This document shows, piece after piece, positions 11,143 to 37,833 of a stretch of 64,000 nucleotides of DNA; the first letter of the stretch is position 1, and every line of letters begins with the position of its first letter. The position numbers and the translations under genes were made by a program. Source of the DNA: a virus; IMG/VR virus record IMGVR_UViG_3300007609_001079, positions 1-64,000 of that record; one strand, 5' to 3'. The notes beneath the pieces were generated by a model. That model was not told the DNA's origin, did no database searches, and worked only from the letters and a program-made list of their open reading frames with translations.

Positions 11143-11259
11143 TTAGTGATTTTTGTAAATGAATGGGTCTCTTTTACGAAGTTCTTCTAACTTCTTTTTA
11201 TAGAGTTTTTCTTGTTTTCTTTTATTAAAATAATTTTTGATAATTTTGAATGGATTCAT
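11143..11259 (-). CDS. 38-aa basic peptide ending KKKLEELRKRDPFIYKNH
   Basis: Hand-translated ATG..TAA ORF filling the gap at the end of the glycan operon; below the ORF-track cutoff; start overlaps the upstream gene. Confidence 0.7.
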   Translation of the reverse strand: MNPFKIIKNYFNKRKQEKLYKKKLEELRKRDPFIYKNH

Positions 11260-12583
11260 CTGTTAAATTTTTATATATGGTTTGTTCTATATTAAAAATA
11301 TTATTATTTGCAGAATATTTTTTTAATAATTCTCGATTATGTATAAGTATTGGTTTTATTTTTTTTAATATATCCACCCACTCATCATCAGTTTTTTTTA
11401 TCAGAGAATTAACGAGTTTGCTTACTTTAAATATTCTAACAGAATCAATAATTTCATTATCATAACTCTCATCCCAAACGGATGAAAATGTTTGAAATCC
11501 CATTGATTGTAAATATTTTAAAGTATTTGGGTTTCCTAATATAACAAACGGATGATATTGTTGTATTGGTTTTATTGTTTTTTCAGTTGTATATATATTC
11601 CATTTTGTAAAAAATTCTGTTTCGGAAACAAGGCTAAAATAACTATCTTTATATAATGAAACATCATCAACTTCTAAAGACCTACCCTCTATTGATTCAT
11701 AATTTTCTATATCTAATGATTTTTTATTAATTTTTGTTAAAATATCATAACCCTTTGTTATTTTTAACATATCATTGGATTTTATTATATTTTTTATAAT
11801 CTCATTTGGCTCAGAATATTCATCCAATCCAAGATAATTATGCGTTTTTATATAATCTATAAAATAATCCGTATTAGTATAGTTCATATCAAACGATATC
11901 AAATTATTTTCTATATTATTAGATTCTGCTAATAAACATAACATTAATATTCTATGTGGGTGTAACCTTCTATTTAAAAATAAAAGTTTATTTTTTTTGT
12001 AACTAATAATATCATCCTCTTTTAAGAATAAGTCAACCGTCTGAGAATCGATTAATTCATTACCCTTATATAGCATATGTAAATTATATATAATGCACAA
12101 AAAATCCTTACTATTTTTTATTTTATATTTTGATTTATATCTATTAATATTATCCTCTATTCCAAAATTATTCGATAATATAATTATTTTATTTCTGGGT
12201 ATATTATATTGAATAGAATCTAAGTACAATTTATTTATATGAAACTTATCTAACTCATTTTCAAATCCAAAATATATTAATATATAAAAATTTTTAATAG
12301 ATTTACTATACGAAATTACTTTATCGGATATATTTGAAAATAAAGATTTTGTTTGATTTGAATCCAATCCAAGAGAAGTGTGTATTTTACCAAAAGTTGA
12401 TATGTTATATAAATACAAAGTGTGCGATGAATTAATATCCACATCATCAATATGAATTAAATTTTGAGCACAAAATGGTAAAATCCCTTCAGAATCTAAA
12501 TCCAAATCATGTATAGAATTTGTAAGTTGACCCACATGATTTACGTGTTCATATACGTTACGAATATCTATCTGAGGTTCCAA
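11225..12583 (-). CDS. Putative glycosyltransferase-like protein (SET/TEK family), paralog 1
   Basis: LFLNRRLHPHR; YFSLVSETEF...TEKTIKPI...HPFVILG...GFQTF...DESYD, reminiscent of the GT10/GT-B C-terminal lobe. Confidence 0.5.
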   Translation of the reverse strand: MEPQIDIRNVYEHVNHVGQLTNSIHDLDLDSEGILPFCAQNLIHIDDVDINSSHTLYLYNISTFGKIHTSLGLDSNQTKSLFSNISDKVISYSKSIKNFYILIYFGFENELDKFHINKLYLDSIQYNIPRNKIIILSNNFGIEDNINRYKSKYKIKNSKDFLCIIYNLHMLYKGNELIDSQTVDLFLKEDDIISYKKNKLLFLNRRLHPHRILMLCLLAESNNIENNLISFDMNYTNTDYFIDYIKTHNYLGLDEYSEPNEIIKNIIKSNDMLKITKGYDILTKINKKSLDIENYESIEGRSLEVDDVSLYKDSYFSLVSETEFFTKWNIYTTEKTIKPIQQYHPFVILGNPNTLKYLQSMGFQTFSSVWDESYDNEIIDSVRIFKVSKLVNSLIKKTDDEWVDILKKIKPILIHNRELLKKYSANNNIFNIEQTIYKNLTDESIQNYQKLF

Positions 12584-12595
12584 TTGTTTTTTATA

Positions 12596-13993
12596 TTACA
12601 ATAAAACATTATGTTCATATTTTATAACCGATTTTAAGTTACGATATATCATTTTTTTAATAGTATCTCCACCATAACTGATTAATAAATTATGATTATG
12701 GATTAATACATCTCGCATTTCCTCTAACATTTTATATAAATCAGAATTACTTAAATTTGATACAATTTGTATTTGATTAATAACAGATAATAACCTCTCA
12801 TCATCATTTTCCATTGTATCATAACTCTCATCCCACCAATTATCAAATGTTCTGAACCCATATTTTTTTAAATGATGTAAAATATACGGACTTCCAATTA
12901 AAAAAAATGGATGAAAATGCATTATAGGTTTTAGAATTTTTTCAGTAAATGATTGAGTAAATTTACTAAATTCTGTTTCAGATACTACACTAAAAAAAGT
13001 ATTTTCATATATTTCTTTTGTTTCCATACCATAACCATGTACGGAGTTTAAATCATCAAAGTCAATCGTTTTTTTATTGATATCACATAGTATATCATAT
13101 CCAGTTTTTAACTTATCATGGATAGATTTATCTCTAATAATCACAGGAGGCATTGTATCATCATTATACAATAATGTTTCTTTAAAATTGTCATAAAAAT
13201 TTAAATTCATATCAAGAGAATATAACATACTATCCAATGTTCCATTTTCAGCTAGTAATGCCAATGAAAGAATTCTATGATATCTTAAACGTCTATTTAA
13301 AAATAACCCCTTATGTGATTTTGGTTTTTTTATATGGGAAATATCAGCTATGGTTGATTTTTCTGCATTTTTATTTGGTTCATATCCCAATCTACTTCGT
13401 AATTCTAATGATTTAAATGGTATTGGCCAATTAAATGTTACTAATCTAATACCATCAGCACTCCCATATTTATCAATAAAATCATCTAAAATAATTTGAT
13501 TACTATTTGTACCATTTACTATTAATATTTTATTAATTGGTATTTCAAATAAAATAGAATCATCATATATTTTTTTTAACAAAGTTGAATCAAAGTATGG
13601 TTCACCGGTTTGTTCATAGAATAGAAATACATTGTTATGTGTTTTTAATAATTCAATTATATTTTTTGATAAAAAATTAAAAAAAGAAATTTGATTATCA
13701 GCCAAACCTAAAGAATTATAGTAATCACCATTTACACTAACGGGGTACAAATAAACAGAATCCTCACTATCACAATCAATATCAGAAATACTTATACAAT
13801 TTAGTTCAAGTGAACCAAGTGAACCAATATTCCAGTAAGTTGTATTTGGAAAATTTTTTTTAAACGGTTCATGTTCTATATTATCTACTATATTAAAATT
13901 TAAATCCCAAAAATATTCAAGGTGGTCTAAATTAACTCCGTTAACTATTAAATTATCTGGTCCAATTAAATCATATATAAGATTAATTTTCAT
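12596..13993 (-). CDS. Putative glycosyltransferase-like protein (SET/TEK family), paralog 2
   Basis: LFLNRRLRYHR; FFSVVSETEF...TEKILKPI...HPFFLIG...GFRTF...DESYD; tandem paralog of 11225..12583. Confidence 0.5.
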   Translation of the reverse strand: MKINLIYDLIGPDNLIVNGVNLDHLEYFWDLNFNIVDNIEHEPFKKNFPNTTYWNIGSLGSLELNCISISDIDCDSEDSVYLYPVSVNGDYYNSLGLADNQISFFNFLSKNIIELLKTHNNVFLFYEQTGEPYFDSTLLKKIYDDSILFEIPINKILIVNGTNSNQIILDDFIDKYGSADGIRLVTFNWPIPFKSLELRSRLGYEPNKNAEKSTIADISHIKKPKSHKGLFLNRRLRYHRILSLALLAENGTLDSMLYSLDMNLNFYDNFKETLLYNDDTMPPVIIRDKSIHDKLKTGYDILCDINKKTIDFDDLNSVHGYGMETKEIYENTFFSVVSETEFSKFTQSFTEKILKPIMHFHPFFLIGSPYILHHLKKYGFRTFDNWWDESYDTMENDDERLLSVINQIQIVSNLSNSDLYKMLEEMRDVLIHNHNLLISYGGDTIKKMIYRNLKSVIKYEHNVLL

Positions 13994-14531
13994 AATACAA
14001 TTCAGGATATTCTACAAGTATATGTATTCCCCCATCAGATAAAGCAGTTTTATATGCAGGTAAAATTTGTTCAGATTTTTTTAATTCTTGTATAGTTACA
14101 TTAGTTAAAATTTGTTTGAAGGGTTCCGTGTAATCTGCTTTATGTTGATGACCCGGGTCAAGTGGTTTATCAGAACCTTTACCAACTCTTACAATTACAT
14201 TTGGTTTCCATTCTCCATCGGACATTGCTTCTAACTTATCCAAATGATTTACTAATTGATTTGCAGCAAGGATTAAGAAATCCCATCGAGGGTAAAAAGT
14301 AACTACTCGATGACCTGTCATCGCAAGACCCATAGTCATTCCCATTTGGGTTTCTTCCATTACTGGAGTTTCTATCATTCTATCTTTTGGTAAACCTTCA
14401 ATTGTCTTTGACATTGGATTACCATAATAAACAATCTGTTGTCCAATAAAAATTGTAGATGGGTCATCCATCACAAGTTTCATTGCTTCAGTAAGATTAT
14501 CTACATATGGTGTGTAGTGTGGTTGTGTCAT
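13983..14531 (-). CDS. ThDP-dependent enzyme, E1-beta/transketolase pyrimidine-binding domain only
   Basis: DRMIETPVMEETQMGMTMGLAMTG, DFLILAANQLVN, GHQH; 182 aa with no C-terminal domain. Confidence 0.8.
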   Translation of the reverse strand: MTQPHYTPYVDNLTEAMKLVMDDPSTIFIGQQIVYYGNPMSKTIEGLPKDRMIETPVMEETQMGMTMGLAMTGHRVVTFYPRWDFLILAANQLVNHLDKLEAMSDGEWKPNVIVRVGKGSDKPLDPGHQHKADYTEPFKQILTNVTIQELKKSEQILPAYKTALSDGGIHILVEYPELYYEN

Positions 14532-14532
14532 T

Positions 14533-15306
14533 TTAATTTAGTTTTTGAGATATAATTTTTTTTATATAATTGTTGGTAATATGTGGATTTATATCTATTT
14601 TGAAATTATCTTTTTTTAATTTATCTATTATTAACTCAGATATTATTTTATGACCCTTTAAGTTAAAATGAATATCATTTATCTGATATCCATATTTTTT
14701 AAAATCAGACCTAACTGTTATTCCATATTCATCATTATGTATAAAATAATCAAATGAATGGCTCATATATCCATCAATTACAATATCAATATGCCTATCT
14801 TTAAATAATCTTTGATATGCATTATTCATCCAAAATGCTTCATTCCATAAAAGTGATATAACCTTAATACCCAATAATTCGTATTTACGTAATACGGAGT
14901 TAAATAACTCTACTTGTTCAGTATATTTATCATTTAACTCTTTTTCAGATAGTTTAATACCCCCATCATCAAAATCTCGGTTTGCTTGTGTAAATTGAAC
15001 AATAACCAAACCAATATCAGATGGGTGAATATCACGATTATTACATATTATTGGATTTAAGATTTCATTTATCATTCCTAAATTAGTTCCTCCATTATTC
15101 TTATTAGCAACCGACCATGTATTAAAATGATTAGCAACCAACGTTATAAATCTATTTGCATCTTTAAAAAGATAATGTGGTTCTCTTAAATGATGGGGTG
15201 CGAAATTATGAATTTTAGAAACTTCAGTAGATTCCATATTTGCGTAAAACTGCAAACCTTCACCCCAGGTGTATGAACAACCAACTCCGAGGATACCTTT
15301 ACTCAT
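14533..15306 (-). CDS. SGNH/GDSL-like protein
   Basis: GCSYTWGEG at the N-terminus and DIHFNLKGH at the C-terminus. Confidence 0.6.
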   Translation of the reverse strand: MSKGILGVGCSYTWGEGLQFYANMESTEVSKIHNFAPHHLREPHYLFKDANRFITLVANHFNTWSVANKNNGGTNLGMINEILNPIICNNRDIHPSDIGLVIVQFTQANRDFDDGGIKLSEKELNDKYTEQVELFNSVLRKYELLGIKVISLLWNEAFWMNNAYQRLFKDRHIDIVIDGYMSHSFDYFIHNDEYGITVRSDFKKYGYQINDIHFNLKGHKIISELIIDKLKKDNFKIDINPHITNNYIKKIISQKLN

Positions 15307-16030
15307 TTTTATCTTCTTTTATTTTTTTTATTATAGAATTTGCTATTACTCTATTTCCATTATGATTAAAGTGCATATCATTAATCTGAAGATTTTTTTG
15401 TGCGAAATCTGATTTTATTGTTAGATTAAAAGAATCTTCATTTACTAATGGTTCAAAATAATTGTATTTATCATTGTTAAAATATATAGGAACATGCCTA
15501 TGCATATACTTTGTTTGGTAGATAGGATTTTCATAATTCTCAACCATCCAAACAAAAGTATATACTTTAATATTATATTCATTTTCAACTTTAGTCAAAA
15601 GAATATCAAGTTCTTCTAATAAACTTGTTATACTTTCCTCATCTCTAGATATTGAACTAAATTGAAATATTAAAGTATCGAAATCACTTAAATTTATATT
15701 AAACTGATAATTTTTCCAAATATCATTATTAACAAAAGTACCTTTTCGTAAATCTAAAAACCCATTATTCTCCAATAGTTCAGATAAAAAACGAATATTT
15801 AAACCATTCATAGAACCATTTAAAAGTTTACTTACAGACCAAGTATCCAATTCACTACACACAAGATTTAACCATCTATACTTGTTTTTATAGGCAGCCA
15901 TTCCCTCTGTGATTGAGTTAAAATCAAATGTATGTTCATGGTTGAATGGTAGATTATCTAAATCGGAATAGAAGTATAATCCCTCACCCCACGTAAATGA
16001 ATCCCCTAATGCAAATATACCTTTACTCAT
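15299..16030 (-). CDS. SGNH/GDSL-like protein
   Basis: GDSFTWGEG and DMHFNHNGN; tandem paralog of 14533..15306. Confidence 0.6.
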   Translation of the reverse strand: MSKGIFALGDSFTWGEGLYFYSDLDNLPFNHEHTFDFNSITEGMAAYKNKYRWLNLVCSELDTWSVSKLLNGSMNGLNIRFLSELLENNGFLDLRKGTFVNNDIWKNYQFNINLSDFDTLIFQFSSISRDEESITSLLEELDILLTKVENEYNIKVYTFVWMVENYENPIYQTKYMHRHVPIYFNNDKYNYFEPLVNEDSFNLTIKSDFAQKNLQINDMHFNHNGNRVIANSIIKKIKEDKNE

Positions 16031-17022
16031 TATGGTTTTGAATTTGGGTCAAACTGGTCTTTATTTTTTTTGTACCATTTAAGTGCATCTTCCAATCCAC
16101 TTCGTAAATCGTATTTAGGTTCCCAACCCAATTTTCTTAATTTTTCGTTTGATAATAATCTAACTGGAATCATCGGTGCTTTGTTATTCACAAACTCGAT
16201 TGGATTGTCGTTCCCCTCAATTTCTTTGATAAGTTCTAATACTTCCATTACTGTATGCCCTTTACCATAACATACATTATAGATATCATATTTATCTACT
16301 TTCTCAGCAACTGTAATAAATCCGCTAACCATATCATCTACGTGAATAATATCACGAACTTCCGTTCCATCACCCCATAGTGGAATTGGATTCAAACCAT
16401 CTGCCACTTTTCTGATGTTTGCTGGTGTAACATGACATTTTTCAAAATCATATTTATCATTCGGTCCAAATGAATTGGAAGGTCTGATAATAACACATTG
16501 CATCGGGTCATGGATTTGATTAGAGAAGAATTCACAAAGAGTTTCTCCATATCTTTTCATCCAACCAACTGCTTTGTAAGCAGGATAGATGTTTGGTGTT
16601 TGTACATTCATATCTTCAGTACAATACTCGCCACCAATATCTGGATACGTGGTATTAGACGAAATAAACATAAACTTACGAACTTTGTTTCTCCAACTTT
16701 GTTCCATAAGATTGGTGTTCATTTCTACATTTGGTGTTACATGGAGTAGTGGATTTACTTTGGTATCCAATGCATTCGAAGTATTAGCTGCAGCATGAAA
16801 TACTACATCTACATCTTTCGAAACTTTTTCACAGAATTCAGCTTCTCGTAAATCTCCATTCAAATGTTCAATATTTTCCCATCCTTCAAAATCCTCACGT
16901 AACCCTCTACTCCACGATGTGGTACGTAGATTCGTGTAACCATTTTCATATAACATTTTAACTAATCGTGAACCAATAAATCCACTTGCTCCTGTAACTA
17001 ATACTTTATCTGTTTTTTTCAT
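16030..17022 (-). CDS. NAD(P)-dependent nucleotide-sugar SDR, GDP-fucose synthase-like, atypical active site
   Basis: VTGASGFIG, HVTPANIRK, WGDGTEVRDIIHVDD; YxxxK position reads VGWMK. Start at MKKTDK (17022) preferred over 17055. Confidence 0.8.
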   Translation of the reverse strand: MKKTDKVLVTGASGFIGSRLVKMLYENGYTNLRTTSWSRGLREDFEGWENIEHLNGDLREAEFCEKVSKDVDVVFHAAANTSNALDTKVNPLLHVTPNVEMNTNLMEQSWRNKVRKFMFISSNTTYPDIGGEYCTEDMNVQTPNIYPAYKAVGWMKRYGETLCEFFSNQIHDPMQCVIIRPSNSFGPNDKYDFEKCHVTPANIRKVADGLNPIPLWGDGTEVRDIIHVDDMVSGFITVAEKVDKYDIYNVCYGKGHTVMEVLELIKEIEGNDNPIEFVNNKAPMIPVRLLSNEKLRKLGWEPKYDLRSGLEDALKWYKKNKDQFDPNSKP

Positions 17023-17947
17023 AATACTCATATGTTTTTTTAATTCCTTCTTCAAATCCTAATTTTGGTAATAAACCATATTGTTCTTGTATCTTGGTTG
17101 ACATTCTTCTTCTCATATCACCATTTGGTTTAGAAGTATCCCAATTTATTTTTATTTCTTTGCCACTTGATTTGGCAACAGTTTCAATCATTCTCTTAAT
17201 TGAGATTTCTTCTCCACTTCCTAAGTTTGTTGTGATGTGTAATTCTTTTTCGAAACAATCTATACATCCATCGGCAACATCGCCGGCATAAATAAAATCA
17301 CGAGTTGGAGTTCCATCTCCCCATGCTTCAATTTCATCAGTTGCATCATAAACTTTTCTACACGTTGCTCCAATTACAGTTGCACCGTCTCCAAAGTTAT
17401 CGTATTCACCAAATATATTTGCCGGTCTTACAATTGTCCACCTATCATATCCATGTTGAACTTTATGAGCTTCCAAGTATAATTCGGGTATTCGTTTACT
17501 CCAGGATGGAAACCAATCATTTGGTGATGGGAGTGTTTTCCATACTGTATCTTCTACAAACTCTTCAGCAGGTTCATAAACACCAACTGAACTCATAAAT
17601 ACTAACCAACAATTGTGTTTGTGAGAGTTTTCAATTATGTTTGTATTTACTTTTATCGATGGTTCAAGAAAATCTAATGGTTTTTCTTTTGCTCTAATTG
17701 GAGAACCTTTAATTCCAAATGCATTAATTACACCATCGTATTTCATTGAATTAAACATATCAACCATATCATCCGATTCTTTTAAATCGGTAGATGAGAA
17801 TAAAAATCTGTCATCATCAATATCCTCCTTCATGGGATTTATATCAACACCATGCACTGAGTAGTTTTTTTCAAGTAGTTTTTTAACTACATGAGTTCCA
17901 ACTAAACCACTACAACCTGTTACTAAAACTTTTCCTTTTGTTTTCAT
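17006..17947 (-). CDS. NAD(P)-dependent nucleotide-sugar SDR, GDP-fucose synthase-like, atypical active site
   Basis: VTGCSGLVG, RPANIFG, WGDGTPTRDFIYAGD, KPNG; YxxxK position reads PSWSK. Start at 17947 (TAATG coupling) preferred over 17962. Confidence 0.8.
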   Translation of the reverse strand: MKTKGKVLVTGCSGLVGTHVVKKLLEKNYSVHGVDINPMKEDIDDDRFLFSSTDLKESDDMVDMFNSMKYDGVINAFGIKGSPIRAKEKPLDFLEPSIKVNTNIIENSHKHNCWLVFMSSVGVYEPAEEFVEDTVWKTLPSPNDWFPSWSKRIPELYLEAHKVQHGYDRWTIVRPANIFGEYDNFGDGATVIGATCRKVYDATDEIEAWGDGTPTRDFIYAGDVADGCIDCFEKELHITTNLGSGEEISIKRMIETVAKSSGKEIKINWDTSKPNGDMRRRMSTKIQEQYGLLPKLGFEEGIKKTYEYYEKNR

Positions 17948-18585
17948 TAAAAAACTACCCATTTACCAGTACCATAATGTGGGTACTTCGATTCATACTT
18001 ATAATATATTACATCTTCTGGTATTTCTCTCTGAATACCATTCCATGTATCTAATGTTGGTGTGTTTGTACTTACACCATTATCTTCTACTACGAAATAC
18101 AAAGGTAAATCATAGTTTCTTGCATATTTGTGAACTTCATAGAAGATTCCACTTTCAAATGCCATATCTCCTAAAAATACCCAAACCTTATCATCACCAC
18201 CATTATACTTAATTGATTTTGCAACTCCAAGCGCAATAGGCAAAGTACCAGTTACAATTGCGGATGCATAAAATTTAGATTCTTTATCTACAATTGTAAT
18301 AGATTTACCATCAAGTATTTTTTGTTTTAATACCAATGGTTCTACACCATGTAAAAGTGCGTGATAATGAGACCTCCATGTAGAGAATACCCAATCATTA
18401 ATTCCAATTTTATCAAATATTCTGATAAGTTCCTTTTCATTACCATTAGATAAGTGAATGGGTCCTGATATTTCACCATTTTCCCAATGTGAAATTATAT
18501 CATCTTCAAAATCTACTAAATCTTGTTCAGACCAATTTCCATTAACCCATCTATCCTCATGATAATCTAAGTTTTTAATTTCCAT
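17947..18585 (-). CDS. ThDP-dependent enzyme, E1-alpha-like (short)
   Basis: GPIHLSNGNE, STWRSHYHAL, ThDP motif GDMAFESG...VEDNG; 212 aa. Confidence 0.8.
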   Translation of the reverse strand: MEIKNLDYHEDRWVNGNWSEQDLVDFEDDIISHWENGEISGPIHLSNGNEKELIRIFDKIGINDWVFSTWRSHYHALLHGVEPLVLKQKILDGKSITIVDKESKFYASAIVTGTLPIALGVAKSIKYNGGDDKVWVFLGDMAFESGIFYEVHKYARNYDLPLYFVVEDNGVSTNTPTLDTWNGIQREIPEDVIYYKYESKYPHYGTGKWVVF

Positions 18586-21298: not shown

Positions 21299-21614
21299 GA
21301 TATATTATGTGAAAATTATTAGATTCATTATACATATTATATAATTTAGGAGATAATATTTTATTTAAATTTATGTGCTTTAATCTATCATCAATAACAA
21401 TTATATATAAATTCTGGTCATTAATGTATGAAGAATGTAATTCTTTAGTTAAAATTTTATTACATTCATTAAAAAATCCAAAATGTACTTTATTTTCTAA
21501 GTTATATTTTAAAACATTTATAATATTTTTTTTAGTATAACAAAAAGGCAAATACCCATTTGGGGTTTTAAAATCAAAAACTATATATAATTCCTTTTTT
21601 ATAAGATTATTCAT
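21261..21614 (-). CDS. Hypothetical AT-rich protein, possibly a truncated paralog of the SET/TEK family N-terminus
   Basis: 117-aa ORF overlapping both neighbours; LYIVFDFKTPNG loosely resembles INLIYDLIGPDN of 12596..13993. Confidence 0.4.
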   Translation of the reverse strand: MNNLIKKELYIVFDFKTPNGYLPFCYTKKNIINVLKYNLENKVHFGFFNECNKILTKELHSSYINDQNLYIIVIDDRLKHINLNKILSPKLYNMYNESNNFHIIYHEYEISEMYSLI

Positions 21615-27794: not shown

Positions 27795-27809
27795 GTAACT
27801 TTAATTATA

Positions 27810-27819
27810 TATAAATATA
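27810..27819 (-). promoter_or_regulatory. TATATTTATA putative late promoter inside the glycan cluster
   Basis: Exact 10-mer ~16 nt upstream of the GT7 start at 27794. Confidence 0.7.
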
Positions 27820-27826
27820 TAAAATT

Positions 27827-30395: not shown

Positions 30396-30397
30396 AT

Positions 30398-31753
30398 CTA
30401 TGCTTCTATTTTTTGTATAGTATCAAACCATTCTATAAATTGAGTTGGTAGATAATCTTCTATTGGTTTTTGTCTACGTTTAGCGTATTGTTCTACAAAG
30501 TTTTTGAAATCATTATGTTTATTTTCCATATTATCGGAATCTTCATATGATACATCAACTTTTCTTAAATAGGTAAGTAATCGTTCATAGTGATTAATTT
30601 CCCACTCCTTCATCCAATCTTTATTTTCCTTAATTGTTTTTTCTAATCTATCAGCAACTGCGTTTTTAACGTCTTGAGAAATAATATTTACTGATTGGAA
30701 TGATGGGAATCTTAAAATATTTACACTCATATAGAATGCTTCTTTATCATTAAATTCTTTTCGCCACCCAACAATCTTTTGTAAAAATTCATCTACACTC
30801 CATATGGATAATGCTGATATTGTCATCATAATATGTACTGAACGAATATTTTCAGAATGATATGCTCGTAATATGTTCTTTTCCCAAGTATCCCATTCAA
30901 ACCCATCTCTTACAAATTCTTGTAATTCACCAATACATTCTGCAGAAGTATAAACATCAAATGATTTAAAGTTTTTTGCGGCATCTAATAGAGTATCCAT
31001 TCTCTCATCTTCTAAGATAAGATTTGAATTTACTGCGAAATCAAATGTTTCGTTATCACACATCTCAAGTAATTGCCAAAACGAAGGGGAACGAGCAGGT
31101 TCTCCACCCGATACTCTTAATTCTTGTAATCCTCCTCTGATTTCTTCGAACCACTCATAGAATTTCTCAATATAAGGGTTGTTTATGTTTTTGTTACCAT
31201 ATGGCATTGCGTGGTGACCAGTATTCTTAAAAGTAAAACCACCAGTTGTTTTCATATTCTGATAAGGTCCTCCACGAGAAATATCTTGATGCCAAGTTGA
31301 TGAGAATTCAGCGTTACAATAAGAACAAGCTAAATTACATAAGTTATCAAATGCCAATTCAACTGTTTTTGGAATTACGTTTGCATCCCAAGGCATATTT
31401 TGAATTGCCTTTACTTCCTCATCGGTATATCTGTAAGTTTGATAAACTCTATCAGAAAATAAACCACTATCTTTTTTAGCGGCATCTTCCACTCTCCAGC
31501 AATAAGAACATTCAGATGGCCTTTCACCATTTAACATTAACTTACGTTGTTCTTTTTTAAATTTGGTATTATGTAAAGCCGTTTTGTTTTCTAACAACTC
31601 ACCCTTTGGTATAGAGTGTGCGAGTGGGTGGTGACAAGAAGCGGTTCTTCCATTACCTAACCAAATAGATACATTGTACCATTTAGCTGCACAAAAGGAA
31701 GTTGATATAGAATCAATTAACTTCGCTGTATTTTGTAAACTTTTTTCTGACAT
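30398..31753 (-). CDS. Radical SAM protein with N-terminal twitch domain (AKW/SCHH subtype)
   Basis: FCAAKW...SCHHP...ECSYCW; CNLACSYC; GGEP. Confidence 0.9.
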   Translation of the reverse strand: MSEKSLQNTAKLIDSISTSFCAAKWYNVSIWLGNGRTASCHHPLAHSIPKGELLENKTALHNTKFKKEQRKLMLNGERPSECSYCWRVEDAAKKDSGLFSDRVYQTYRYTDEEVKAIQNMPWDANVIPKTVELAFDNLCNLACSYCNAEFSSTWHQDISRGGPYQNMKTTGGFTFKNTGHHAMPYGNKNINNPYIEKFYEWFEEIRGGLQELRVSGGEPARSPSFWQLLEMCDNETFDFAVNSNLILEDERMDTLLDAAKNFKSFDVYTSAECIGELQEFVRDGFEWDTWEKNILRAYHSENIRSVHIMMTISALSIWSVDEFLQKIVGWRKEFNDKEAFYMSVNILRFPSFQSVNIISQDVKNAVADRLEKTIKENKDWMKEWEINHYERLLTYLRKVDVSYEDSDNMENKHNDFKNFVEQYAKRRQKPIEDYLPTQFIEWFDTIQKIEA

Positions 31754-33111
31754 AACTTATAATAATTATTTAACTCTTTAAATGTGGTTTGAAAATTTGT
31801 ATTTCTTCGTTTATCATATTCATCTATAAAATTAACAAAATCACTTCTATTTTTTGTTGTTGTTACTTCATCATATGTGTTGTTATACATATGAGATATT
31901 AATCCTTGAAGTTGGTTTATTTGCTCATTAGTTAAACACCCATCTCCATTTTCATAAACACCCCAAGTTCTTTCTTGGATAAGTTCTTCAACATCTTTTT
32001 TAAATTTATCTTTTGTTTCTGTATCTAGATTTACAATAGATAAAAATTCAGGATATATTAAGAAATTATTTACAAATTGAATTTTGTTATAATCAACTTC
32101 CTTGTTATAAATAGAACGAAGTTCTAAAAGGTATCTCACAAACTCACAATAGGATTCTATTGTTAGAATATTTACTGCTGTCATACAAGATGCGAGTACA
32201 TTTTTTACATTTGAAAGAACTTTTTCAAAGTTTTTTTGCCAAACTTCATATTTTAATCCATACCTAATATATTCATTTTGAGAACCAACCGATTCTCCAC
32301 TTGTGAATATTTGTATTTCTTTTACTTTACCATCTAACTGATTTAATTTATCAATAAGTTTATCGATTAAGTTATCAGGTACCATTAAGTTGGTATTTAC
32401 ACAAAATATTAAATTAGGATTTGGATTTTCAATCAACTCATCCATTACCTTCCAAGTATCTTTTGATAAAAGTGGTTCACCACCTGTGATTCTTAATGTG
32501 TGTAATTTTGGATAAAGTTCTGGCCACCATTTCCAAAAGGCATCTACATATGGATTTTCTTCTGATTGTTTATAAGTTCGTTTATCTTCTTCTAATTTAT
32601 TGTAATTATTTGAAGTTGGATATGAACCAAATCTTTCTATTTCTTCTAACCAAGTTGTGGAATTTGAATGAGTACAATATGCACATTTCATATTACATGT
32701 ATTCGAAAAGGAAACCTCTAAATAACTTGGTTCTATATCTCTGGTACCTTTTTCTAAGATTTCATCTTTTTTAATTTGAGAAAAAGAATTACCAGATTTA
32801 TAAATTCTTTCAGAAAAGTAATTATCACCTAAATCTTCAATCTTCCAACAATATTCACATTCACTCGGTCTATCACCTCGCAACATCTTTTTCATTTGTT
32901 GCTTTTTATATCTAGTATTATGAAGTGCTTTTGGATTTCTCTGAACTTCTCTTAATGGTATTTTATGAGGTGATGGATAATGACAGGAATGGTTATATCC
33001 ATTTTGTAAGTAAAGTGTTAATTGTGACCATTTAGCTAAACAGAAACTTGATGATACTTTACCAAGTTCCTTCTTAACTTTTAAATGATGTTCCATTACA
33101 GTTTGCCACAC
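31717..33111 (-). CDS. Radical SAM protein with N-terminal twitch domain (AKW/SCHH subtype)
   Basis: FCLAKW...SCHYP...ECEYCW; CNMKCAYC; GGEP. Confidence 0.9.
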   Translation of the reverse strand: MWQTVMEHHLKVKKELGKVSSSFCLAKWSQLTLYLQNGYNHSCHYPSPHKIPLREVQRNPKALHNTRYKKQQMKKMLRGDRPSECEYCWKIEDLGDNYFSERIYKSGNSFSQIKKDEILEKGTRDIEPSYLEVSFSNTCNMKCAYCTHSNSTTWLEEIERFGSYPTSNNYNKLEEDKRTYKQSEENPYVDAFWKWWPELYPKLHTLRITGGEPLLSKDTWKVMDELIENPNPNLIFCVNTNLMVPDNLIDKLIDKLNQLDGKVKEIQIFTSGESVGSQNEYIRYGLKYEVWQKNFEKVLSNVKNVLASCMTAVNILTIESYCEFVRYLLELRSIYNKEVDYNKIQFVNNFLIYPEFLSIVNLDTETKDKFKKDVEELIQERTWGVYENGDGCLTNEQINQLQGLISHMYNNTYDEVTTTKNRSDFVNFIDEYDKRRNTNFQTTFKELNNYYKLCQKKVYKIQRS

Positions 33112-34511
33112 TCCTCGTAAAATTCTGCTAATTCTGGAAAAGTTTCTTTGAAGTTAGTACCTCTACGTTCATCATGAGCTTTAAACATATTGTAGAAGTT
33201 TCTACGAAGTTTATTCTGTTCACTTTCATCTATTGGTTCATCAAACCAATCTATAATTCTTCGTATTTTTCCAATCTCAATTTGAGTAAATCCTAAATAC
33301 CAATCTTTCCATTCTTCTATTTCCCAAAGTGGTTTAATAGTATGTAAAGTTTCCATTTGAATTGCAATAGATTCCAAAGTATCTCTCCATTCTTTTGGTA
33401 AAATTTTTACAATCTGATGGGTGGGATATCTTAGATAAGCAGAATCTAAAGTTAAAGCGGTTACCCAATATCTATCTGGTGAATTGTGTTTTACCTTTTG
33501 TTCAAATACCCAATCCACTAAATCAGCATATTTTGGAACTGATAAAGCATTGAAGGTACTCATCACTGCTATTGATAATTTTTTAGTTTTTGAAAGTAGT
33601 TCATCAACTCTACGTTGCCATTCATCAAATTCTAGACCATTTCTAATATAATCTGCTTGTTTACCAAAAGTATCAACTGATGTAAATATTGTGAGTTCCG
33701 ATACTCTACCACTTTCTTCCAATTGAACTAACTTCTCTACCAATTTATCATAAAGAACAGCAGGTACACCTAAGTTAGAATTTATAGATAATTTTAAATT
33801 AGTGTTTGGGTTATCAGTAGTAAGAATGTGGTCAATTACTTTCCAAAAATCAGGAGACATTGAAGGTTCACCACCGGTAATCCTAAAAGTGTGCATATCT
33901 TTATACAAATCTGGCCACCATTCCCAAAACGCATCTACATATGGATTTGGTTCAGAATGTTTATAAGGCATTTTACCAACTTCCTCAAACCACTCTAAAT
34001 TATTAAAGTTATCAGTAGTGGGATATGCACCATGTTTTTTTAATTCAGTTACCCATGCTGATGAATATTGAGGTCCACAATATGAACATTTAAAGTTACA
34101 TGCATTTGAAAAAGCAACCTCAACATATTTTGGATTATAGTTTTTTCTCCAAGGAGTATTTTTAATTTCATCAAAAAATGGTTCTGACCAAGGTTCTGAT
34201 GATTTATATGTTCTATCAGAAAACTCCGGTCCACTGTCCTCAACTTTCCAACAGTAATCACATTCATCAGGCCTACCACCTTCTAACATCTCCTTACGTT
34301 GACGTTTTTTATGTTTGGTATTATGAAGTGCGGTTGGGTTTCTTCTTAATTCTAATAATGGAATTTTATGAGGTATAGGGTGGTGACAAGAATGTGTTTC
34401 ACCATTTTGCAAATGAATTGTAACTTGTGTCCATTTTGCTAAACAAAAACCACAACCAGTTTCGTTTAATTTATCCCTTAAATCGTAAAGTTCTCCTCTA
34501 TGGTCTATCAT
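33096..34511 (-). CDS. Radical SAM protein with N-terminal twitch domain (AKW/SCHH subtype)
   Basis: FCLAKW...SCHHP...ECDYCW; CNFKCSYC; GGEP. Confidence 0.9.
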   Translation of the reverse strand: MIDHRGELYDLRDKLNETGCGFCLAKWTQVTIHLQNGETHSCHHPIPHKIPLLELRRNPTALHNTKHKKRQRKEMLEGGRPDECDYCWKVEDSGPEFSDRTYKSSEPWSEPFFDEIKNTPWRKNYNPKYVEVAFSNACNFKCSYCGPQYSSAWVTELKKHGAYPTTDNFNNLEWFEEVGKMPYKHSEPNPYVDAFWEWWPDLYKDMHTFRITGGEPSMSPDFWKVIDHILTTDNPNTNLKLSINSNLGVPAVLYDKLVEKLVQLEESGRVSELTIFTSVDTFGKQADYIRNGLEFDEWQRRVDELLSKTKKLSIAVMSTFNALSVPKYADLVDWVFEQKVKHNSPDRYWVTALTLDSAYLRYPTHQIVKILPKEWRDTLESIAIQMETLHTIKPLWEIEEWKDWYLGFTQIEIGKIRRIIDWFDEPIDESEQNKLRRNFYNMFKAHDERRGTNFKETFPELAEFYEECGKL

Positions 34512-35353
34512 ACTGAAACTATTTTATCTATAAGTATTTCCCATTGTGAATAACTCTGATGATAATTTTCATCCATTTTTTCAATGTGGAAATCTGGATT
34601 ATCTATATCGATTTTCCAATCATTTAATTGTATCCCTCGATACATTTTTTTATATTCCTGCCAATAAGTGTAATCTTCTTTCGTTTCACTTACTTCTTTT
34701 AATCTTTCTAAAACAGTTGAATCCCATTTAAAATGATGAACTTGTACAAATCCTTCACCTTTACCAATTGGATATTTCTTTTTATGAAATTTCCCCCAGC
34801 TGTTTTTACCATCTTCACCTACAATTGCATAGTGTTGACCCGAAGTTACATCAACCGAACCTTTCATTACACAAACTTTGTTAGGACAAGCCCCACTCAT
34901 TGGATATCTAAAAAATCCTGCTAATGGGAAAGATTTCCAAATATCCGTATATCTGTGAACATTTGGAAACTTCCCTCCTTCTCCTATCCTATCGAGAAAT
35001 CCACCTGTGATAAACTCCCATCCATTTTCTTCACATTCTTTTATCATCTTACGAATGTTTTTTGGATACAAGTGAAATTCATCATCATCCGCAACCACCC
35101 ACCATTCATCTGGTTTAGTTTGCTTTACTTTGTTATATAATTCAGTTACCTTCTCCCAATTAAATTTAGGTTCTGTAACCACCATATAAGGTTCCACACC
35201 ACACTTCTTTACTTCTTCAAGTATTCCATCATCTTCACTCTGTCTATACACCACAACGAAGATTTCATCTACCATCGATTCGTAATGTTTTAACATATGT
35301 GGAAATAATGTAGTATTGTGTCCTACAACCGTAACTAAATTTAATTTTTGCAT
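34508..35353 (-). CDS. GT-A fold (GT2-like) glycosyltransferase
   Basis: MLKHYE...VDEI, WWVVADDDEF (DxD-type), late GQH and VHHFKW motifs. Confidence 0.7.
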   Translation of the reverse strand: MQKLNLVTVVGHNTTLFPHMLKHYESMVDEIFVVVYRQSEDDGILEEVKKCGVEPYMVVTEPKFNWEKVTELYNKVKQTKPDEWWVVADDDEFHLYPKNIRKMIKECEENGWEFITGGFLDRIGEGGKFPNVHRYTDIWKSFPLAGFFRYPMSGACPNKVCVMKGSVDVTSGQHYAIVGEDGKNSWGKFHKKKYPIGKGEGFVQVHHFKWDSTVLERLKEVSETKEDYTYWQEYKKMYRGIQLNDWKIDIDNPDFHIEKMDENYHQSYSQWEILIDKIVSV

Positions 35354-36120
35354 CTTTGTAATATCGTTAAACCTGTTGAAGATGGTTTACTTCTAAATAT
35401 ACCATTATTGAATAAGTTGAAAATTTCCCAATCACTATCCTGCTTTAATTCTTTAATTAATTGAGCGGGTCCATTTGCATATTCTTGATGAAATCCTTCT
35501 CTGATATCATCTGTTATATAATGTTCTTTTTCAAATGAGATATCAGTATCGTGAATAGAAATTATACCATGTGGTTGAAGTAATTGAGAATATAATTCAA
35601 AATCTTGTTTTACATCTTCATAGGAATGACCAGCATCAATATGTAGATAATCTATTTTTATATCTTCTTTAACAAAAAAATCATAGAAAGCTCGTTCGGT
35701 AGTTGTAAGTAATAACCTTGGGTCAAAGTTTTTTCTAAAGAAAGAATTCTCATCAGTCCAATCGGTAAATCCACCAACTCCATTTGATGCATCTACAAGG
35801 TACGTTGAACCAATATCACCCCAATTTATATCATTATTTCCTCCAAAGATTCCAGCCTCGTATAAATCGAATCTTGCTTGTGTCATTATCCGTGGAATAA
35901 ATCCTCCACCACTTCCTAAACATACACAAGTTTTAGCACGAAGATAATGAATTAAAGAATAAATTAACAACCCATCACCCAAATGTAAATCACCAGCGCC
36001 ATGAGTCCATCGATATTTAATAGGAGTATGAACCTCGTACTCTCTATTAGTGTCATCTGTCTTAGTGTCTAAGTTATGGGTTATAAAGTCTTTTATATAT
36101 TTTGTATTAAGTATACTCAT
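35341..36120 (-). CDS. Class I SAM-dependent methyltransferase (Methyltransf_24-like)
   Basis: CLGSGGG, IDYLHIDAGHSYEDVKQDF, GIISIHD. Confidence 0.85.
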   Translation of the reverse strand: MSILNTKYIKDFITHNLDTKTDDTNREYEVHTPIKYRWTHGAGDLHLGDGLLIYSLIHYLRAKTCVCLGSGGGFIPRIMTQARFDLYEAGIFGGNNDINWGDIGSTYLVDASNGVGGFTDWTDENSFFRKNFDPRLLLTTTERAFYDFFVKEDIKIDYLHIDAGHSYEDVKQDFELYSQLLQPHGIISIHDTDISFEKEHYITDDIREGFHQEYANGPAQLIKELKQDSDWEIFNLFNNGIFRSKPSSTGLTILQRCKN

Positions 36121-36160
36121 TTTGTCACTGCTTTAGTGCTGTCCCCCTGCCCCCTATGGT

Positions 36161-36170
36161 TATAAGTATA
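36161..36170 (-). promoter_or_regulatory. TATACTTATA variant of the late promoter motif
   Basis: One mismatch; ~41 nt upstream of the methyltransferase ATG, heading the MTase-GT2-radical SAM run. Confidence 0.5.
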
Positions 36171-36218
36171 GAGAATTTAATGAAACGTATATATTTATAT
36201 AAAAATATATAAAATAAT

Positions 36219-37280
36219 TTAGAAAAATGAAATCATTTGTGTTCTGACTTGGTCTATCCAGTCTTTTTTATTATCGTACTTTTTTAAGTATTCTATTAAT
36301 TTATTTCTTTCTTCTACACGAGTTTCATGCGAATCCTTTAATATTTGTTTAATACAACCATCAAATTCATTTTTCGTACTTGCTCGGTATTTATACTCCA
36401 CATCTTTACACCAATCTGTATTAATTATTGGTAATTTTCCGTAATCTAACGCCTGAAAAATTGAATAACCGAATGGTTCTTTAAAATATGCTCCATGAAA
36501 TATTCCCCAAGTTTTACCCATAAATGCTTGATAAATGTTTGGATTCCATTGATATAAATCTACAGTGGGTAACGTAAATGATGAAGTATCTTTTAAATTT
36601 TGAACATCTCTCTGGTCTGTTAAGGCGTATCCTTTTGTTATACCATTCATCCAATGTAAACATTTACGAGATTCTGCTCTAGCAGCAAATCCAACTTCAC
36701 CATTATCAACATGAGTAGTTAATTGTGCTGGCCCTTGAAACTCATAATAGTTTGGAATTGTATAAGTGTAATTTGGAAATTTTTCTTTCATCGAAGTTGG
36801 GTTCATACCAATCCAAATTCTTCGCTTACATGTCATTATAAACTCATCGTAGAAATTTACATCTACTTTGGTTTGTAATTGTATCCTATCTAATTCTGGC
36901 ATCTTTTTCATTACATCTGTCATATCTCGTGGATATGCATGAACGAAAATTATTCCAAACTTATCTTCGTGTTTCCAAAGATGTTCTCGGTAATGATAGT
37001 TTCCATGAAGGAAGTGTATCCACTCTGATTCTTCACACCACTCTTGAGTTATATCTTCATCATCAAAGTGAAAATGATATTTTAATCCTTTTGGTAAAGA
37101 TTCTGGTTTAAAGTTTCCGGGTCTTTTAGAATCTATTAATAATCGGTAATATCGATGATTTGGTAAGAGAGGCCAAACTTCTTTTAGAAAGTTATTTACC
37201 CATATATCCGCCCCACCTTGAACAGTATTTCCTGCTCCAGTTGCCACTAGTAAAAAGTATGGTGGTTTCTTATCTGACAC
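36219..37280 (-). CDS. GT-B fold (GT4-like) glycosyltransferase
   Basis: N-terminal QGGADIWV, ARAESRK, EPFGYSIFQALDYGKLPI (EX7E-like region); GTG start. Confidence 0.7.
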   Translation of the reverse strand: MSDKKPPYFLLVATGAGNTVQGGADIWVNNFLKEVWPLLPNHRYYRLLIDSKRPGNFKPESLPKGLKYHFHFDDEDITQEWCEESEWIHFLHGNYHYREHLWKHEDKFGIIFVHAYPRDMTDVMKKMPELDRIQLQTKVDVNFYDEFIMTCKRRIWIGMNPTSMKEKFPNYTYTIPNYYEFQGPAQLTTHVDNGEVGFAARAESRKCLHWMNGITKGYALTDQRDVQNLKDTSSFTLPTVDLYQWNPNIYQAFMGKTWGIFHGAYFKEPFGYSIFQALDYGKLPIINTDWCKDVEYKYRASTKNEFDGCIKQILKDSHETRVEERNKLIEYLKKYDNKKDWIDQVRTQMISFF

Positions 37281-37298
37281 TTTTATTATAACCTTTTA

Positions 37299-37308
37299 TA
37301 TAAATATA
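37299..37308 (-). promoter_or_regulatory. TATATTTATA putative late promoter
   Basis: Exact 10-mer ~19 nt upstream of the 37280 start. Confidence 0.7.
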
Positions 37309-37311
37309 CAT

Positions 37312-37833
37312 TTAATCATTTATTTGATTTTTAGTTAACCAAAACACTAATACATAACGAGTACCACTTAAAACACTTTCAACTTGGTGGTTTAAATTTG
37401 AATCAAACATTACCATGTTACCACAACTTCTATCCGAACAATATGATGTTTTATCACCATTTTCATCAAAATCCCATATGATTAAATCACCCCCATTGTA
37501 TTCCGCTTTATCAGATAATTGTATAGATACGGATTTATATCTATCTTCATGACCAACCCCACTATCTATATGATTATCAAAATACTGCCCTTCTTTATAT
37601 CGAACAACGGTAACCACATCTGGTAATGATATTATATTATATTTACTTAGTTTTGTAAGTAAAAGTTCTTCAACTTCTTTATTTGAATAAAATGAATGTT
37701 CATAACAGGTTCTATCATCGGTTATTTCAACTGTTATTCCATCATTTGTAATTCCACTACGTACAAATTCTCCACAGAGTGATAGAATTTTTTCACATTC
37801 TTTTTTGGTAAAAATTATATCTTGTTGTATCAT
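37312..37833 (-). CDS. 2OG-Fe(II) oxygenase (prolyl-hydroxylase/PKHD-like)
   Basis: RYKEGQYFDNHID, YNGGDL, HQVESVLSGTRYVLVFW. Confidence 0.9.
   Translation of the reverse strand: MIQQDIIFTKKECEKILSLCGEFVRSGITNDGITVEITDDRTCYEHSFYSNKEVEELLLTKLSKYNIISLPDVVTVVRYKEGQYFDNHIDSGVGHEDRYKSVSIQLSDKAEYNGGDLIIWDFDENGDKTSYCSDRSCGNMVMFDSNLNHQVESVLSGTRYVLVFWLTKNQIND

Follow-up and report, generated by a model that had tools for sequence, protein, structure and literature searches.

A predicted glycan assembly and tailoring cluster beside the tail-fibre gene of a T4-like phage

The IMG/VR record IMGVR_UViG_3300007609_001079 is a linear virus sequence of 101,661 bp that is 55% complete according to CheckV. 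Its GC content is ~30%, and the minus strand holds nearly all genes. The window analysed here comprises positions 1-64,000 of the record; positions beyond it are given as genome positions. Within the window, a cluster of 27 open reading frames (ORFs) of 87-496 residues occupies 11225-37833, all on the minus strand and most of them abutting or overlapping by a few bases. This arrangement is as an earlier sequence-only reading had described it, with 27 genes in place of its estimate of about 28. The large terminase of the virus is T4-like, with Microcystis phage Mel-JY01 (56%) and Flavobacterium phage immuto (55%) as its best matches, and the portal, primase and baseplate module are syntenic with those of immuto. 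The cluster products are mainly sugar-nucleotide enzymes, glycosyltransferases (GTs) and tailoring enzymes. The sugar-nucleotide module contains the following genes.

19146-20111, minus strand: Cj1427-like short-chain dehydrogenase/reductase (SDR), putative nucleoside diphosphate (NDP)-heptose C4-dehydrogenase, 58% identical over 305 residues to PDB 6VO6
18575-19159, minus strand: putative 4-keto-heptose 3,5-epimerase of the RmlC fold (dTDP_sugar_isom 6.6e-41)
17006-17962, minus strand: GDP-fucose-synthase-like/4-epimerase-like SDR, candidate C4-reductase
16030-17055, minus strand: second SDR of this kind, also a candidate C4-reductase
17947-18585, minus strand: PP-domain subunit of a thiamine diphosphate (ThDP) enzyme, E1-alpha-like, 212 residues (PF00676 1.2e-13, TIGR03182 8e-22)
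13983-14531, minus strand: Pyr-domain subunit of a ThDP enzyme, E1-beta/Transket_pyr-like, 182 residues (PF02779 5e-5, NF006667 3.7e-12)
23047-23457, minus strand: nucleotidyltransferase of the cytidylyl/adenylyl-transferase fold, 136 residues, candidate for sugar-1-phosphate activation (PF01467, CTP_transf_like, 7.5e-9)

The dehydrogenase matches PDB 6VO6 with an E value of 3.6e-108, and the next PDB match, at 5.7e-19, is 89 orders of magnitude weaker. PDB 6VO6 presumably is Cj1427, an identification drawn in part from the works cited in PMC10680097; it is deposited only as 'putative sugar-nucleotide epimerase/dehydratease'. The epimerase is closest in the PDB to the Campylobacter jejuni GDP-D-glycero-4-keto-D-lyxo-heptose 3,5- and 3-epimerases (E 7e-48 to 3e-43), and the best dTDP-type RmlC follows ~20 orders of magnitude behind (E 9e-27). 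The two other SDRs score alike with 4-epimerases and with GDP-fucose synthases (E 1e-27 to 1e-30), and they match the C. jejuni reductase entries only in part. All three SDRs are recognised by Pfam with E values of 1e-33 to 1e-43.

In C. jejuni, the Cj1427 C4-dehydrogenase acts first, followed by the Cj1430 3,5-epimerase and the Cj1428 C4-reductase (PMC10680097). Because the dehydrogenase, the heptose-type epimerase and the reductase-like SDRs of the cluster match this order of chemistry, the donor sugar is very probably a modified NDP-heptose. The resemblance to the C. jejuni GDP-heptose pathway thus covers the high identity of the dehydrogenase, an epimerase whose nearest solved relatives act on heptose, and GDP-fucose-synthase-like SDRs as candidates for the reductive step that follows. 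The phage-encoded pathway differs in having two reductase-like genes, a ThDP pair and a TagD/RfaE-like nucleotidyltransferase, and in lacking capsule export. It also lacks recognisable heptose-precursor genes: no GmhA, HddA, GmhB or HddC was found among the Pfam-scanned proteins of the 55%-complete contig, and the host may supply the precursor. The nucleotidyltransferase scores 3e-9 with the NCBIfam model rfaE_dom_II, below its cut-off, and 1.7e-4 with TagD in the PDB.

The E1-alpha-like ThDP subunit matches pyruvate dehydrogenase E1-alpha in the PDB at 8e-8. YerE and AviB1/B2 are analogues for the addition of a two-carbon branch to a 4-keto intermediate, and by this analogy the ThDP pair inside the heptose module may catalyse such an addition.

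Seven GT-like genes accompany the sugar-nucleotide module.

26304-27794, minus strand: GT7-LamG protein, copy C (GT7N 4e-23, GT7C 5e-19, LamG 2.8e-5)
24646-26088, minus strand: GT7-LamG protein, copy B (residues 9-176 match beta4GalT1 with E 8e-34 and beta4GalT7 with E 9e-32)
21611-23050, minus strand: GT7-LamG protein, copy A (GT7N, GT7C and Laminin_G_3)
34508-35353, minus strand: GT-A/GT2-like protein, a weak assignment (PF13704 6.7e-5, below the Pfam cut-off)
36219-37280, minus strand: GT-B (GT4-like) candidate with an E-P-F-G...L-P-I motif and no Pfam family above cut-off
12596-13993, minus strand: GT-B fold protein of a virus-only family, with no sequence family
11225-12583, minus strand: paralogue of the preceding protein, from the same virus-only family and with no sequence family

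All three GT7 proteins pass both Pfam GT7 models (N and C regions) as well as Laminin_G_3. In an alignment of 38 GT7 homologues, D85, D87, W143, E148, D149, D151 and H419 are invariant; these residues form a DVD motif, a WGWG-x-EDDD block (WGWGFEDDD) and a downstream His accompanied by DGLN-x-L. They presumably correspond to functional residues of beta4GalT1, including the DxD motif and the metal-binding His. An insert of approximately 230 residues, which includes the LamG domain, separates the EDDD block from the His/DGLN block. Judged from the alignment, the GT7 catalytic domain is complete, with LamG inserted within it, and the insert may be an acceptor-binding module. Proteins of GT7-LamG architecture number at least 2974 in metagenomes, and none was found by tblastn among 50,697 sequenced phage records. 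The GT7-LamG enzymes are the first dense beta4GalT-like set in phages that we could find. The LamG insert of copy A (residues 159-352) gives a weak tblastn match to the immuto 'structural protein' gp051 (23% identity, E 1e-5), which hints that the insert is derived from, or similar to, a lectin-like domain of a virion fibre or baseplate protein.

The GT4-like protein is 68-69% identical in related contigs and finds one unannotated metagenomic phage among the 50,697 phage records. In the ESM Atlas, two clusters match it with a score of 0.97, one of viral Glycos_transf_1 proteins and one of DNA alpha-glucosyltransferases. One of the two terminal GT-B proteins was modelled with AlphaFold2 (predicted local distance difference test score, pLDDT, 87), and all top Foldseek matches of the model are GT-B glycosyltransferases. 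Its VIA Z scores are 11.9 to T4 beta-glucosyltransferase (BGT), 11.1 and 10.2 to exostosins (the former to the EXT1-EXT2 heparan sulfate polymerase), 10.4 to a serine-rich-repeat-protein GT, 9.3-9.4 to alpha1,3-fucosyltransferases and 9.4 to T4 AGT. A chlorella-virus GT is also among its structural neighbours. In other viruses, the terminal GT-B domain is fused to an NDP-sugar SDR (P0359, P0360).

The tailoring genes are dominated by radical S-adenosylmethionine (SAM) enzymes. They are listed together with the two small ORFs of the cluster.

33096-34511, minus strand: N-terminal-twitch radical SAM protein (NF033640), first of five in tandem
31717-33111, minus strand: N-terminal-twitch radical SAM protein (NF033640), tandem
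30398-31753, minus strand: N-terminal-twitch radical SAM protein (NF033640), tandem
29079-30395, minus strand: N-terminal-twitch radical SAM protein (NF033640), tandem
27827-29104, minus strand: N-terminal-twitch radical SAM protein (NF033640), tandem
20108-21298, minus strand: sixth N-terminal-twitch radical SAM protein (NF033640, 289 bits)
23462-24649, minus strand: seventh radical SAM protein, of another subtype without the N-terminal twitch (PF04055 3e-6; NF033640 44 bits, a non-member)
35341-36120, minus strand: SAM-dependent methyltransferase (PF13578, Methyltransf_24, 1.7e-10)
15299-16030, minus strand: SGNH-like protein with a GDS-type block and a D-x-H block, no Pfam match, candidate O-acyl esterase/transferase
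14533-15306, minus strand: paralogous SGNH-like protein with the same blocks, no Pfam match, candidate O-acyl esterase/transferase
37312-37833, minus strand: 2-oxoglutarate (2OG)-Fe(II) oxygenase of PKHD/PiuC type, prolyl-hydroxylase-like (PF13640, 2OG-FeII_Oxy_3, 1e-13; PDB 3dkq 5e-6)
26039-26302, minus strand: acidic 87-residue ORF of unknown function with a Ser/Thr-rich tail, no family match, present in only one related contig
21261-21614, minus strand: 117-residue ORF of unknown function, conserved in relatives

The five tandem genes score 293-387 bits with NF033640 (N_Twi_rSAM), for which the cut-off is 170. In all six members, C132, C136 and C139 of the CxxxCxxC motif, the GGEP motif, and C17, C36, C77 and C80 are invariant. 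The seventh protein has weak NCBIfam matches to a tungsten-cofactor maturase and to BlsE, and its gene is missing from close relatives. No solved relative of the NF033640 type was found by sequence. An AlphaFold2 model (pLDDT 93.8) brings up SkfB, CteB, BlsE, viperin and anSME only at template modelling (TM) scores of 0.36 or less. The family has at least 4161 metagenomic members, and a radical SAM query returned only three weak matches from the 50,697 phage records. To our knowledge, no member has been characterised.

Similar arrays occur in other phages. Three IMG/VR loci (L009, L011 and L026) carry up to ten NF033640-type paralogues in unbroken tandem, flanked by recurring proteins of ~115, ~300, ~290, ~340 and ~326 residues without a Pfam family. 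T4-like marine viral genomes with multiple radical SAM genes have been described, one of which carries 12 (Nishimura et al. 2017, PMC5332604). In Pfam tallies, the neighbours of bacterial NF033640 genes are mostly other radical SAM proteins and TPR proteins, with a few GT2 enzymes; those of distant phage arrays are mostly unannotatable, with a recurrent carbamoyltransferase and no recognisable GTs. Neither tally settles the substrate. Unlike the arrays of distant phages, the genes described here are set among GT and sugar-nucleotide genes.

The two SGNH-like paralogues are 31% identical to each other (E 4e-35) and weakly similar to a Pfam-supported SGNH protein at 49421-50200. Elsewhere, the genome encodes two more NF033640-like radical SAM proteins and another SGNH protein, 2OG oxygenase and methyltransferase. 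A Sulfotransfer_2 gene (53002-53565, E 2.4e-13) lies just downstream of the baseplate module and beside a SegE-like GIY-YIG endonuclease gene (52578-53039); the combination of a sulfotransferase with GT7 enzymes is a pairing like that of animal glycosaminoglycan synthesis. A NodU/CmcH-type carbamoyltransferase is encoded at genome 72684-74390 behind a TATATTTATA promoter, and its homologues adjoin radical SAM arrays in distant IMG/VR phages (L010, L017, L044 and L045). A SAM synthetase at genome 78014-78979 contains all three MetK domains and plausibly feeds the nine radical SAM proteins and three methyltransferases of the phage.

Family searches in Pfam, NCBIfam and the PDB agree with most assignments of the sequence-only reading: three SDRs, an RmlC protein, a ThDP pair and a cytidylyltransferase, as well as three GT7 proteins, seven radical SAM proteins, a methyltransferase and a 2OG oxygenase. 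The GT-B fold of its two 'GT-like' proteins is borne out by AlphaFold2 and structure search. Its 'GT2-like' protein falls below the Pfam cut-off, its 'GT4-like' protein is a motif and language-model match only, and its single SGNH protein proves to be two paralogues, recognised by motif blocks only and without a Pfam match. With E values up to 10, Pfam gave nothing useful for the eight Pfam-negative cluster proteins. A megablast search with 12 kb of the cluster found no match in the 50,697 phage records.

A decamer, TATATTTATA, occurs genome-wide in 15 sense and 2 antisense copies, and 13 of the 15 sense copies sit 13-51 nt upstream of a start codon. It is a real phage promoter type. The sequence-only reading had placed a structural-gene motif at 37299, 36161 and 27810; the copies at 37299 and 27810 are exact, and the one at 36161 has a single mismatch.

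37299-37308, minus strand: TATATTTATA, exact, 28 nt upstream of the GT4-like gene
36161-36170, minus strand: TATACTTATA, one-mismatch copy, 50 nt upstream of the methyltransferase gene
27810-27819, minus strand: TATATTTATA, exact, 25 nt upstream of the gene for GT7-LamG copy C
20286-20295: TATATTTATA, internal copy within the sixth N-terminal-twitch radical SAM gene

The same decamer precedes the tail-fibre gene, five genes of the baseplate module, genes beside the terminase and portal, and the carbamoyltransferase gene. Because the motif is shared with baseplate, fibre and packaging genes, the cluster appears to be wired like the structural genes. Host-type (Bacteroidota-type) promoters are absent from 11-50 kb. 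They are present only at 51-52.6 kb and 75-101 kb, where they precede replication-side genes, and a Bacteroidota host fits for this reason. The source is an uncultured T4-like phage, probably of Bacteroidota.

The cluster lies between tail-fibre and head genes, as the sequence-only reading had it, with an S74-type fibre on one side and the terminase and portal on the other, beyond a 1335-residue enzyme and three small genes.

40214-46069, minus strand: tail fibre of 1951 residues with a C-terminal Peptidase_S74 chaperone domain (E 8.8e-15), heading the operon
37830-40214, minus strand: 794-residue protein with 30% Ser/Thr and repeated Ig/BACON-like modules, translationally coupled to the fibre gene
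7091-11098: 1335-residue multidomain protein with cytidylyltransferase-fold, GNAT and HD domains and a C-terminal region
4110-5705: large terminase
1908-3641: portal

The 1951-residue protein is assigned as the tail fibre because it ends in a Peptidase_S74 domain. Its N-terminal ~900 residues are 40-62% identical in four related contigs. As listed, the ORF starts with a TTG at 46069, but its first codons coincide with the promoter motif (46054-46063), and translation probably begins instead at the ATG at 46033, which lies 30 nt past the motif. The 1335-residue gene has its own late-type promoter at 11120-11129, and its immuto counterpart is annotated as a NadR-like nicotinamide mononucleotide adenylyltransferase. 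This NadR-like gene forms the cluster boundary in all relatives.

Five related IMG/VR contigs share a layout in which the tail fibre is followed by the cluster and this by the terminase. In two of the relatives (G001 and G003), the order of fibre, cluster, NadR-like gene and terminase is the same, and the terminase is 87% identical. The sequence-only reading had raised cluster variability among relatives. In these two contigs, ~22 core genes are kept at 50-92% identity; the cluster edges and the fibre C-terminus vary, and the tandem block of five radical SAM genes has been transposed with respect to two of the GT7 genes. Several genes are specific to the phage described here: the radical SAM gene at 23462-24649, the 87-residue ORF, the 2OG oxygenase, the 794-residue protein, a second SGNH gene and a second GT-B gene. 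Phage immuto has the same backbone with its fibres directly after the baseplate genes and without such an island, whereas here the fibre and cluster sit between replication genes and the NadR-like gene. For this reason, fibre and cluster appear to have been inserted as one unit of ~35 kb. Immuto possesses a small glycan cassette of its own elsewhere (NC_055915.1 54450-59988), annotated with a methyltransferase, a mannosyltransferase, a WecE-like transaminase, a 'pilin glycosylation protein', a nucleotide-sugar epimerase and a glycosyltransferase.

Taken as a whole, the cluster very likely encodes a cytoplasmic pathway for making a modified NDP-heptose and for assembling a glycan that has several residues and is heavily tailored. 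The small nucleotidyltransferase would activate the sugar phosphate, the Cj1427-type dehydrogenase would oxidise the NDP-heptose at C4, and the heptose-type 3,5-epimerase would scramble C3 and C5. The minimal two-subunit ThDP enzyme would probably add a two-carbon branch to the 4-keto intermediate, and the two GDP-fucose-synthase-like reductases would set the final configurations. Three GT7-LamG enzymes, one GT-A-like protein and three GT-B proteins would then build an oligosaccharide of several residues. Tailoring would be performed by the six N-terminal-twitch radical SAM proteins, the other radical SAM protein, the O-methyltransferase and the two SGNH-like proteins, joined from elsewhere in the genome by the sulfotransferase, the carbamoyltransferase, two more radical SAM proteins and the phage SAM synthetase. 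The glycan would be placed on a phage structural protein, either the tail fibre or some other protein of the virion surface, in the cytoplasm while particles assemble. The enzyme families with their intact catalytic motifs, the promoter type, the conserved order of fibre, cluster and terminase, and the lack of lipid-carrier, flippase and polymerase genes are observed; we infer the order of the steps, the branched heptose, the tailoring of the glycan by radical SAM proteins and, above all, the acceptor.

Cytoplasmic synthesis without export, as proposed in the sequence-only reading, agrees with what the genes lack. The Pfam scans recognised no initiating polyprenyl-phosphate transferase, flippase, ABC exporter, polymerase or ligase in the 101.7-kb contig, and a Kyte-Doolittle hydropathy scan found no membrane protein in 11-38 kb. 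A virion acceptor fits best with the promoter class, the inheritance of the cluster with the fibre gene, the lack of lipid-carrier machinery, and the mycobacteriophage and giant-virus precedents. Even so, a virion protein as acceptor, though the likeliest candidate, falls somewhat short of probable. The best explanation of the whole, a late, cytoplasmic glycan factory that travels with the fibre gene and places its glycan on a phage structural protein, is offered tentatively.

The precedents are partial. In mycobacteriophages, virion O-glycosylation involves soluble GTs, sometimes with a methyltransferase, encoded in or beside the structural genes and active in the cytoplasm on virion proteins, according to the accounts that cite this work (Freeman et al. 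2023, cited in PMC12619734 and PMC12801897). The likeness lies in soluble GT genes that adjoin or directly follow structural genes, here the tail fibre, and share a structural-type promoter. As summarised in those accounts, the mycobacteriophage systems comprise between one and four GT genes and draw on the sugar nucleotides of the host, in contrast to the 27 genes, dedicated sugar synthesis and predicted radical SAM tailoring of the present cluster.

Giant viruses provide the second precedent. Chlorovirus capsid glycans and Mimivirus fibril glycans are atypical structures on virion proteins, made with the viruses' own sugar-nucleotide synthesis and with cytoplasmic GTs and methyltransferases, independently of the host endoplasmic reticulum, Golgi or lipid carriers. 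Virus-encoded sugar-nucleotide synthesis together with cytoplasmic GTs and a methyltransferase recurs in the present cluster. The giant-virus machineries differ in belonging to eukaryotic viruses and in having no radical SAM arrays, and the homology extends to generic folds only.

Several observations weigh against the glycosylation of a virion protein. Nothing in the sequence identifies any acceptor, and the virion protein proposed in the sequence-only reading is one candidate beside that reading's own alternatives, DNA and the host surface. Neither the Ser/Thr-rich neighbour nor the 2OG oxygenase accompanies the cluster in relatives, and the capsid genes lie outside this 55%-complete contig. 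The late expression predicted for the cluster is deduced from a motif shared with structural genes. The GT-B proteins are about as similar to T4 BGT and AGT as to protein or glycan GTs. Peripheral O-antigen GTs are also soluble, so the lack of membrane proteins is compatible with a lipid-linked host acceptor. Finally, the arrays without recognisable GTs in distant phages and the radical SAM/TPR neighbours in bacteria leave glycan tailoring by radical SAM proteins conjectural.

The 794-residue Ser/Thr-rich protein was considered as a dedicated acceptor. It has no Pfam or PHROG match and is possibly a fibre accessory or an acceptor in this phage, but as a general explanation it was rejected, since G001 and G003 keep the cluster without this gene. 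Collagen-like G-X-Y repeats were looked for as substrates of hydroxylation and glycosylation, and none was found.

An alternative acceptor is the host envelope. The modified NDP-sugars and the transferase steps would enter the lipid-linked O-antigen or capsule pathway of the host, relying on the host flippase and ligase, and the altered cell surface would block superinfection or the adsorption of progeny to debris during infection. The closest counterpart of the heptose module is a bacterial capsule pathway, and peripheral O-antigen GTs need no transmembrane segment. The same proposal was made for the 'host recognition clusters' of pelagimyophages and cyanomyophages, in which tail-fibre genes are combined with GT, lipopolysaccharide (LPS) and radical SAM genes and for which the authors favour modification of the host O-chain (PMC7029224). 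The present cluster shares with these a T4-like aquatic phage and the joining of tail-fibre genes to GT, LPS-type and radical SAM genes. It differs in its probable Bacteroidota host, its animal-type GT7-LamG enzymes, its Campylobacter-type heptose module, promoters that point to co-expression with structural genes, and a core of ~22 genes that is kept in G001 and G003 while the cluster edges and the fibre C-terminus vary. Envelope remodelling is nevertheless unlikely. The contig contains no recognised initiating polyprenyl-phosphate transferase, flippase, polymerase or ligase, and, unlike Wzx/Wzy or ABC-type O-antigen and capsule clusters, the 11-38 kb region has no such families and no multi-pass membrane protein. 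The structural-gene-type promoters and the absence of host-type promoters from 11-50 kb fit poorly with exclusion functions, and the cluster is inherited with the fibre gene, not with early genes.

Modification of the phage DNA is a further alternative and distinctly improbable. In this case the glycan, or part of it, would be carried by a modified base, as in the glucosylated hydroxymethylcytosine (hmC) of T4 or the mono- to tri-saccharides, including heptose, on 5-hydroxymethylcytosine (5hmC). The phage is T4-like, the top structural match of the GT-B model is T4 BGT, with T4 AGT further down, and the GT4-like protein lies near a DNA alpha-glucosyltransferase cluster in language-model space. 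A precedent is heptosyl-5hmC, reported to be made with a small cytidylyltransferase and a GT-B enzyme, and such clusters are reported to lie near structural genes (Pyle et al., bioRxiv 10.1101/2023.12.21.572611). The known DNA glycan clusters (T4 AGT/BGT; Pyle et al.) and the present one have in common GT-B-fold enzymes, a small cytidylyltransferase-fold enzyme and heptose, predicted here, as a sugar. However, the GT-B match is at fold level only, as T4 BGT, exostosins and fucosyltransferases lie within 1-2.5 Z units of each other. GT7 enzymes extend sugars, not bases, and no known DNA glycan comes near the requirement for seven GT-like genes plus tailoring by methyl, acyl, sulfate and carbamoyl groups; the late-type promoters also set the cluster apart from those systems. 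The enzymes that would hydroxymethylate or methylate the base were not found in the contig, namely PF00303 (thymidylate-synthase-type hydroxymethylase), PF00145 (C5-methyltransferase) and PF12851 (Tet_JBP), although the positive controls of the PF12851 search also gave no match. PF00303 was not found in five related fragments either; all records are incomplete, and this negative is firm for the cluster, not for the whole genome. The 2OG enzyme of the cluster is of PKHD type and is not conserved in relatives.

A diffusible glycosylated small molecule, such as a heptose natural product, or a matured phage peptide, for example the 87-residue ORF, is very unlikely. In its favour, SPASM/twitch radical SAM proteins are typical of pathways for ribosomally synthesised and post-translationally modified peptides, aminoglycosides and nucleoside antibiotics, the structural neighbours of the radical SAM model are SkfB, CteB, BlsE, viperin and anSME, the cluster holds two small ORFs and bacterial homologues lie in radical SAM/TPR arrays, but the 87-residue ORF is missing from most relatives, Pfam detects no transporter, protease or leader-recognition (RRE) domain, and seven GT-like genes argue for an oligosaccharide on a macromolecule.

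Glycosylation of a virion protein is the preferred reading. In its fullest form, a widespread lineage of uncultured T4-like Bacteroidota phages would cover the giant fibre, or a different virion surface, in a heptose-containing oligosaccharide that is branched, bears methyl and acyl groups and perhaps sulfate or carbamoyl groups as well. LamG-guided GT7 enzymes of animal type would build it, the twitch radical SAM arrays that are common in aquatic phages would constitute a new class of glycan editors, and a tailed phage would glycosylate its virion on the scale of giant viruses. This extended version is doubtful.

Aquatic T4-like phages are already known to combine tail fibres with neighbouring glycan and radical SAM genes. 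Cyanophage P-SSM2 carries LPS-gene clusters. The distinctive features of the present cluster are a Campylobacter-type heptose module at ortholog-level identity, a triple GT7-LamG set unknown in sequenced phages, a conserved core co-inherited with the fibre, and promoters that tie it explicitly to structural genes. Among abundant aquatic myophages, glycan islands next to the fibre genes are a frequent feature. This island is an unusually informative case: its sugar module has a well-characterised bacterial counterpart, so that the donor sugar can be predicted and made in vitro, its promoter class is tied to virion genes, and fibre and cluster form a conserved unit in relatives. Should the virion be the acceptor, tailed phages would, like giant viruses, be makers of complex particle glycans, with consequences for host recognition, for the stability of the particle and for how well it withstands grazing or enzymes. 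A glycan-editing role of the radical SAM arrays would give the large NF033640 family a function.

Some further features of the genome touch on its annotation and transcription. Searched against PHROGs, ten flank proteins gave matches to terminase, portal, SbcC and primase and to nothing else. In immuto, the homologues of the baseplate genes are gp105-gp117, and genome 65945-67969 matches the immuto baseplate wedge protein with E 6e-147. The 98-nt spacer before the methyltransferase gene (36121-36218) carries the promoter motif twice in degenerate form; it also has an unusual run rich in G, GGGGGCAGGGGGAC, and a short hairpin that directly precedes the start codon. It has no Rfam match, and Rfam detects no riboswitch or other RNA family in the window. 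GC-rich hairpins with T-runs occur at 54920-54999 and genome 72212-72301, immediately upstream of TATATTTATA promoters, and look like terminator-promoter junctions that delimit late transcription units. Four phage tRNA genes lie at genome ~99.3-100.0 kb (Asp-GTC, Ser-TGA, Thr-TGT and Glu-TTC); those for Ser and Thr may be of use for the Ser/Thr-rich fibre proteins.

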